Origin: Escherichia coli
Lineage (GTDB): Bacteria > Pseudomonadota > Gammaproteobacteria > Enterobacterales > Enterobacteriaceae
Length of the DNA stretch: 680 bases
Assembly (NCBI RefSeq): GCF_003334385.1
Contig: NZ_QOWN01000151.1
Direction: 5' to 3' (one strand)
In this document: one piece after another, positions 1-680 of the stretch
How positions within the stretch are numbered: the first letter of the stretch is position 1
Layout of the letters: the number at the start of each line of letters is the position of its first letter
Notes under the pieces: model-generated
The model's input: only the letters and a program-made list of their open reading frames with translations
What the model was told of the DNA's origin: nothing
Database searches by the model: none
Position numbers and translations under genes: made by a program

Positions 1-680
1 CTGAAACGTATTTTGCCTGGTAACGGGCGTCATCAAGTGCATTATGGCGCTCACCTTCGAATGGAATAGCCGTTCTGGCATCGAAGTCTATGGCTTTCCC
101 CAGCTCAACGATTGTGCGTACATCGCGATCGTTGTAGTAACGCCACGGGCAGGGGATCCCCTGCCGTTCGTATGAACGGCGCAAAATCGTGTTGTCGAAG
201 TTGGCTCCATTTCCCCAAACCTGAACAAAAAATTCACCGGAGTTTTCGTCGATAAATTCCCGCAATTGTAACAGTGCATCATCTAACGGGATTTCATCGG
301 TCATAATGGCAGATTGCGCTTCGCGTGATTGCTTAAGCCACCATTTAATGGTGTCCCGATCAATGACTCCGCCAGCAGTTTCCAGATCGATAGTCTTACT
401 AAATTCCGGTCCCATATCTCCGGTTTGCGGATCGAAAAATATTGCACCTATTGAGATGATCGGGGCATCAGGATTTTTTCCCATGGTTTCAAGGTCGATC
501 ATTAGATGGTCACACGTCCTGCTGGTGGATGTGATTTCTTGATGACCGTTCACCTTAATTGAGTGATCTGCCGTCTCGCCAGTTTCATTATCGCTATCGT
601 GATGCTGATTGCCGCCAGTGTTCTCCTTGTGTGGATGTTCAGCGCCTTCCATTTCCTCCGGATCATCTTCCTGAACTTCA
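1..680 (-). CDS. Internal fragment (no start or stop in window) of a DnaQ-like DEDDh 3'-5' exonuclease domain protein, preceded by an acidic His-rich linker; possibly part of a prophage RecE/exodeoxyribonuclease VIII-like multi-domain nuclease
   Basis: Seen in sequence: the minus-strand frame with codons 302-304, 299-301 etc. has no stop codon from 679 to 2 (about 226 codons), against roughly 10 stops expected by chance. Translation contains Exo I LMIDLETMG followed by a hydrophobic strand PIISIGAIFFD, Exo II VWGNGANFDNTIL, and Exo III ERHNALDDARYQAKYV, matching the order and spacing of DEDDh exonucleases. The RecE-like attribution is from recalled domain architectures and is unverified. Confidence 0.85.
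2..508 (-). other. DEDDh 3'-5' exonuclease catalytic domain, truncated at its C-terminal side by the window edge
   Basis: Predicted catalytic residues: Exo I Asp at 494-496 and Glu at 488-490 (IDLET); Exo II Asp at 194-196 (ANFD); Exo III His at 44-46 and Asp at 29-31 (HNALDD). A His in Exo III defines the DEDDh rather than the DEDDy subgroup. Motif I to II spacing is about 100 residues and II to III about 50, typical for the fold. Confidence 0.75.
148..165. repeat. Perfect 18-bp palindrome ggcaggggatcccctgcc, centred on GGATCC/GATC, inside the coding sequence
   Basis: Seen in sequence: positions 148-165 equal their own reverse complement; symmetry breaks at 147/166. It encodes RQGIPCPW in the main minus-strand frame. 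It can be read as a 7-bp GC-rich stem (ggcaggg/ccctgcc) with a gatc loop. Confidence 0.9.
521..679 (-). other. Acidic, His-rich low-complexity segment, probably a disordered inter-domain linker N-terminal to the exonuclease domain
   Basis: Translation EVQEDDPEEMEGAEHPHKENTGGNQHHDSDNETGETADHSIKVNGHQEITSTSRT is dominated by E, D, H, G, T and N, has no hydrophobic core pattern, and is in frame and continuous with the exonuclease domain. Confidence 0.6.

Follow-up and report, generated by a model that had tools for sequence, protein, structure and literature searches.

Introduction

The closest described relatives of the domain considered here are DexA of bacteriophage T4 (PDB entries 8KEL and 8KEN) and the E. 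coli homolog EcD, which belong to the same Pfam family and share its fold. DexA has the same five DEDDh residues and is approximately 21% identical to the domain in Foldseek alignment. Two further DexA residues, W152 and D169, are needed for recognition of 5hmC DNA, and EcD is described as the 'HREX' anti-phage exonuclease of E. coli (PMC12153337). The domain also gives a full-length HMM match to the Rv2179c-like family (PF16473), with which it has the DEDDh catalytic set in common. The founding member of that family is a stand-alone mycobacterial RNase, unlike the 823-residue prophage fusion described below.

RNase T, oligoribonuclease (Orn) and the epsilon subunit of Pol III have the same fold and order of elements, with Exo I at the end of strand beta1, and these classical DEDDh exonucleases show 14-21% identity in the Foldseek alignments shown. 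Exo I of Orn reads WIDLEMTG. The end of beta3 reads YLKPD in epsilon, HVEPF in RNase T and VHQSD in Orn, and we know of no D-L-E-T-like string at this place in the three families.

This study concerns a 680-nucleotide stretch of E. coli DNA (the window, analyzed over its whole length) in which the pentapeptide IDLET is encoded twice within one domain of this type. It is very probable that the window codes for the DEDDh domain at the C-terminus of a lambdoid-prophage protein, that its first IDLET is the Exo I motif, that the second is non-catalytic, and that the identity of the two is a lineage-specific coincidence.

Results and Discussion

Gene and prophage setting

The sole long open frame of the window is minus-strand frame 1, which spans it entirely and matches the annotated 'exonuclease' CDS WP_113344110.1 (E. 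coli 118UI) at 100%. The residue-to-coordinate map of this protein on the window agrees codon by codon, and the coding sequence is divided as follows.

2-679, minus strand: partial coding sequence, residues 585-810 of the 823-residue prophage 'exonuclease', running off both window ends.
565-679, minus strand: acidic, His-rich linker, residues 585 to approximately 622, common to Rac RecE; recE homology ends here.
2-508, minus strand: DEDDh/DnaQ-fold 3'-5' exonuclease domain (PF16473), residues 642-813 (642-810 within the window).

The gene lies within a Rac-like lambdoid prophage whose insertion adjoins ompW, with dicB/DUF1482 as neighbors on one side and xis/int on the other. Of 5426 complete E. 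coli genomes, 4053 (approximately three quarters) have close copies that span at least 80% of the window, at up to eight places per genome and mostly with at least 95% identity. Copies are also found in Stx2a-converting and 'PPompW' phage records.

A plus-strand open reading frame (306-542, 78 residues), which reads VSRSI opposite each IDLET, was rejected as a gene and is regarded as spurious, since a stop codon breaks it in E. coli alleles L003 and L004. VSRSI appears opposite both copies because the antisense frame shares third codon positions with the sense frame. No Rfam family matched either strand of the window at E values up to 1, a scan of the window for promoters and terminators gave nothing above shuffled controls, and the DNA repeats in the window comprise just short, low-identity chance families.

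A DEDDh exonuclease domain

Pfam PF16473 (Rv2179c-like 3'-5' exoribonuclease) matches the domain with E values of 1.3e-66 and 3.4e-67 over model positions 2-177 of 177, and a weak match to Pfam RNase_T falls in the same domain. An AlphaFold2 model of the domain (pLDDT 93.9, pTM 0.90) displays the DnaQ order of elements, with beta1 at residues 9-16, beta2 at 25-33, beta3 at 40-48 and a helix at 59-66 (domain numbering). Foldseek searches with this model highlight T4 DexA (8KEN and 8KEL) as the best matches, followed by RNase T and oligoribonuclease, with a probability of 1.00 and TM scores of approximately 0.7. DexA is also the nearest solved structure by sequence, with an E value of 6.6e-8 for the single sequence and 1.1e-21 for the profile. 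The motifs of the domain are located as follows.

485-499, minus strand: first IDLET, Exo I, end of beta1; D646 (494-496) and E648 (488-490) are predicted metal ligands.
434-460, minus strand: strand beta2, IISIGAIFF, residues 658-666 (model strand 25-33), with G29, A30 and F33 at least 90% conserved.
377-391, minus strand: second IDLET, end of beta3 and turn; I681 is the last residue of beta3 and D682 is encoded at 386-388, before the conserved Gly687.
338-352, minus strand: T694-x-x-W697-W698 of helix alphaA (model helix 59-66), with T in 125/132, W in 122/132 and W in 131/132 sequences.
194-217, minus strand: Exo II, W739-G-N741-G742-A-N-F745-D746, with D746 in 130/132 sequences and W106, N108, G109 and F112 at least 90% conserved.
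29-46, minus strand: Exo III, H796-N-A-L-D-D801, with H in 132/132 and D in 130/132 sequences.

An exhaustive HMMER search yielded 12,164 representative homologs of the domain. Column counts are given throughout for 132 sequences, namely the query and 131 whole-domain representatives among the best 150 of the 12,164. In alignment A1, which comprises 98 of the representative homologs, D13, E15, D113 and H163 are invariant, and D168 is at least 90% conserved. These residues are D646, E648, D746, H796 and D801 of the full protein, all of which lie within the window, and the presence of H-x4-D in Exo III assigns the domain to the 'h' subtype of DEDDh. The domain thus has every sequence and fold feature of the DEDDh/PF16473 class, and 3'-5' exonuclease activity is predicted on the basis of alignment and model. 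D646 and E648, together with D746 of Exo II and D801 of Exo III, are predicted to hold two catalytic metal ions, while H796 would activate the attacking water as in the standard DEDDh mechanism.

The first IDLET is Exo I

IDLET is encoded exactly at 485-499 (residues 645-649; ATC GAC CTT GAA ACC) and again at 377-391 (residues 681-685; ATC GAT CTG GAA ACT), both on the minus strand. The preliminary description had placed the copies about 35 residues apart, which is confirmed; start to start, the spacing is 36 residues (108 nucleotides). The model places all five residues of the first copy in strand beta1 (domain residues 9-16). The columns at this site are composed as follows.

Site 1, position 1: I, L or V in 130/132.
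Site 1, position 2: D in 131/132; no sequence replaces the catalytic D13 by S, T or N.
Site 1, position 3: L or I in 129/132.
Site 1, position 4: E in 129/132.
Site 1, position 5: T in 118/132.

The commonest string at the site is IDLET itself, found in 40 of the 132 sequences. A near-invariant D-x-E on beta1, followed by beta2 IISIGAIFF, bears out the earlier assignment of this copy as a canonical Exo I motif.

In three homologs the Exo I Glu is replaced by Lys (P0012, VDLKT; P0017, VDLKT; P0095, LEIKT), and from their sequences these may be catalytically dead copies. Two of the three are long fusion proteins, of 752 and 641 residues. M644 (500-502, minus strand), directly before the first IDLET, is retained as Met in 122 of 132 homologs, and several stand-alone homologs (EcD, P0024, P0025 and P0076) begin exactly at this position. 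An internal start at M644 that would give a stand-alone domain is unlikely, the sole Shine-Dalgarno-like sequence being an AGGA approximately 14 nucleotides upstream, at poor spacing.

The second IDLET is not conserved

At the second site the columns are composed as listed here, with frequencies that may lean slightly toward the residues of the query, since the 131 homologs are those closest to it.

Site 2, position 1: I or V in 125/132.
Site 2, position 2: D 69 (52%), S 27, E 9, K 9, T 7 and N 5 of 132.
Site 2, position 3: L in 80/132.
Site 2, position 4: E 40 (30%), D 19, A 16, K 12 and Q 11 of 132.
Site 2, position 5: T 15, S 79 and D 25 of 132.

Among the 132 aligned sequences, only P0001-P0004, all with at least 85% identity to the query, have an exact IDLET at the second site; P0007 (75% identity) has ISLVD there and P0008 (73%) ISLTN. 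Within E. coli, alleles L003 and L004 (91-93% DNA identity) have IDLDT at site 2 and an intact IDLET at site 1, and an allele at 85% DNA identity retains both IDLETs.

These columns bear directly on the suggestion, made in the preliminary description, that the second copy supplies a family-specific second acidic pair. In its wider form, this reading takes the second D-x-E for a family- or lineage-specific auxiliary pair that serves a third metal, a substrate or a regulatory cation beside the active center. D is the commonest residue at the site, E is the commonest two positions on, and beta3 runs parallel to beta1, so that its C-terminal end points to the sheet edge that also holds the active site, as judged from the model and the general topology of the fold. 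In DexA, where site 1 reads IIDFETMG and site 2 KFDLKSQKG, the D-L of the second IDLET and thus its Asp (FDLKS) are retained, but Lys takes the place of the Glu. In the alignment, however, D-x-E occurs at site 2 in just 20 of 132 sequences (15%) and any acidic pair ([DE]-x-[DE]) in 36, while site 1 is invariant. That combination had been named beforehand as the outcome that would tell against a second acidic pair. Many homologs that have all five catalytic residues replace the Asp by S, T, N or K, and the relatives at 73-75% identity carry Ser together with Val or Thr. The DexA structure paper names the five DEDDh residues, W152 and D169 as functional, and D50 is not among them (PMC12153337). 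A family-specific second acidic pair is thereby refuted, and an auxiliary pair in the wider sense is considered very improbable.

The strand order of DnaQ folds is 3-2-1-4-5. Beta3 would thus be an edge strand, two strands from beta1 and away from Exo II and Exo III, which would argue against a share of the second IDLET in metal binding. Since D is still the majority residue at the site and is kept in T4 DexA, some non-catalytic role for the Asp is likely. There remains a slender chance that the end of beta3 in the E. coli prophage protein is a true second D-x-E, which would bind an extra cation or contact the incoming 3' strand and so tune substrate choice, or, more weakly, that D682 and D50 of DexA are second-shell residues that position the T-x-x-W-W helix.

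A turn between beta3 and helix alphaA

The preferred reading is that the second IDLET is structural. In the model, beta3 (40-48) ends at I48, followed by D49 in coil and a short helical turn made up of L50-T52, which leads via the conserved G54 to the helix at 59-66 carrying the near-invariant T61, W64 and W65. The T-x-x-W-W of this helix, alphaA, is presumably nucleotide-binding, by analogy with oligoribonuclease and RNase T. At position 49, 108 of 132 sequences have D, S, T or N, the classical helix N-cap set; at position 52, 124 have S, D, T or N.

Mutual information from approximately 127 related sequences, which offers hints only, links L50 to helix positions 66, 63 and 59 (z = 5.1, 4.1 and 3.7) and, weakly, D49 to K63 (z = 2.9). 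I681 and L683 would pack in the core under helix alphaA, and D682 would cap the short turn after beta3; it is read as a cap because the position varies to S, T and N as capping residues do. E684 would occupy a freely variable surface position, and T685 would fill a slot that usually holds Ser. From alignment and model, we infer that the second IDLET has no catalytic role and forms a structural segment where beta3 turns toward helix alphaA.

Identical pentapeptides with different conformations, known as 'chameleon' sequences, were reportedly described by Kabsch and Sander in 1984. The two IDLETs resemble such cases in the predicted structure, in that the same five residues are all strand at site 1 but form a strand end and helical turn at site 2. 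Unlike the chameleon cases, both copies belong to one protein.

Chance and the origin of the repeat

Composition-preserving shuffles contain some repeated 5-mer in 1.6% of cases for the 226-residue window translation, 1.1% for the 190-residue domain and 21% for the full 823-residue protein. Of 127 homologs less than 80% identical to the query, 2 (1.6%) have some repeated 5-mer within the domain. An exact pentapeptide repeat inside one domain of this size thus has a chance level of approximately 1-2%; from the shuffle rates, the IDLET repeat is mildly unusual in a single window but expected many times genome-wide.

A trace of an intragenic DNA event, such as internal duplication, gene conversion or slipped-strand copying, is extremely improbable. 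The copies are identical at 12 of 15 nucleotides, which might be taken in its favor, but the three differences are synonymous third-position changes, in three of the five codons, and the longest exact run common to the copies is 5 nucleotides. Protein identity extends over IDLETxG (IDLETMG and IDLETAG) and no further, the flanks being unrelated, and a repeat search of the window with a 7-nucleotide seed leaves the two sites unpaired. The earlier conclusion against a recent DNA duplication therefore stands. Close homologs, moreover, differ at site 2, which indicates that the identity arose by point substitutions on a pre-existing beta3 segment.

The two sites were compared at the level of the family, using column frequencies from the 127 homologs less than 80% identical to the query and all non-overlapping window pairs in the domain. 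For the chance of drawing one string twice, the site pair (12, 48) comes top among 14,028 pairs of five-column windows and likewise among 13,366 pairs of seven-column windows. Per lineage, the two sites would carry an identical 5-mer with a probability of 0.0012; repeated 5-mers at all places in the domain add up to an expectation of 0.010, of which this pair makes up approximately 12%. In the HMM consensus, site 1 appears as 'iDlEtlg' and site 2 as 'vdlesa..g'; only site 1 has capitals, which denote strong conservation. Both sites follow a loose pattern of hydrophobic residue, D, hydrophobic residue, x, S/T, x and G, and this shared pattern makes exact pentapeptide identity likelier. The family comprises thousands of lineages, so that a few exact repeats at precisely these two sites are expected; P0030, which is 49% identical to the query, has independently acquired VDLET at both.

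The same resemblance, hDLx[ST]xG at the ends of beta1 and beta3, could be read as a relic of an ancient strand-turn duplication in the DnaQ/RNase H-like fold. The top rank of the site pair in profile similarity, at both window widths, and the recurrence of VDLET at the same two places in so distant a homolog as P0030 are in keeping with such an origin. The likeness, however, spans approximately 7 columns, too few residues to test deep homology, and the preceding strand residues and the following segments are unrelated. The homologs were, moreover, selected for likeness to a query in which the repeat is present. Strands in which buried and exposed positions alternate before a polar cap and a Gly turn commonly arise by convergence. 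Nothing further speaks for ancient duplication, which is regarded as very unlikely. The shared pattern of the two sites is most simply regarded as convergent.

Coincidence, which the preliminary description had listed as an alternative, is therefore favored by the evidence: the second site is unconserved, and a weak family-level resemblance between the sites helped the match along. Column conservation quickly settles repeats of this kind, in that a catalytic Asp stays D and a capping Asp varies to S, T or N. The gene is annotated as an exonuclease across thousands of E. coli genomes and its first IDLET is textbook Exo I; the repeat is ordinary and nothing new.

A RecE-like scaffold

The acidic linker at the start of the encoded segment marks the end of a longer region of RecE homology. 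By megablast, the linker is 84.6% identical (query bases 1-116) to annotated recE of K-12-like strains, and by blastp residues 262-625 align to residues 278-591 of Rac RecE with 39% identity (E = 9e-61). This homology stops just upstream of the exonuclease domain, at residue 625 in the blastp alignment and near position 565 of the window. Homology to RecE takes in the middle region of the 823-residue protein, its zinc-ribbon-like CxxC...CxxC motif and its acidic linker. The CxxC-x8-CxxC motif lies at residues approximately 556-572 (L001 4250-6721), just upstream of the window and directly before the acidic linker, reads CTACGQTGGGNCPDCG and is apparently a zinc ribbon; its conserved counterpart in RecE is CNACGQTGGDNCPDCG.

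Beyond the linker the two proteins part, RecE continuing into a 5'-3' nuclease and the 823-residue protein into a 3'-5' DEDDh nuclease instead. The C-terminal 5'-3' nuclease of RecE is a PD-(D/E)XK-type domain. The position of the gene in the Rac-like prophage is similar to that of recE, but no recT follows it. The NCBIfam RecE model NF007259 gives 273.7 bits against a cutoff of 1269, with profile positions 271-602 of 877 matched, and an identification of the protein as RecE was rejected on account of this score and of its different C-terminal nuclease domain. With that domain replaced and the score below the RecE cutoff, it is misleading that some phage records name the protein 'exodeoxyribonuclease VIII'. 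By its sequence, the protein is a RecE-like mosaic carrying a predicted DEDDh 3'-5' nuclease (L001 4250-6721; L005 1352-3952).

Relation to EcD and DexA

EcD is a stand-alone protein, whereas the window domain is the C-terminus of an 823-residue protein. The possibility that the domain is EcD itself was examined and rejected, EcD being stand-alone and beginning with MIDTET according to its cloning primer (PMC12153337). No defense model of PADLOC 2.0 matches the 823-residue exonuclease.

The DexA residues needed for 5hmC recognition align with Y766 (134-136, minus strand; W152) and A780 (92-94, minus strand; D169), although the alignment of these loops is uncertain at approximately 21% identity. 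D782 and D784 lie near A780. The family column at the DexA Trp position contains W in 61, Y in 24 and R in 16 of 132 sequences.

The surrounding gene outweighs the repeat in interest. A literature search for prior work on a RecE-like DEDDh fusion returned nothing relevant, and no experimental study was found of this gene, in which a RecE-like scaffold with a swapped nuclease, related to DexA and EcD, is carried by approximately three quarters of complete E. coli genomes. Should the HREX model hold, the prophage enzyme may differ in its preferred DNA modification, given that Y766 and A780 align with the two recognition residues of DexA.
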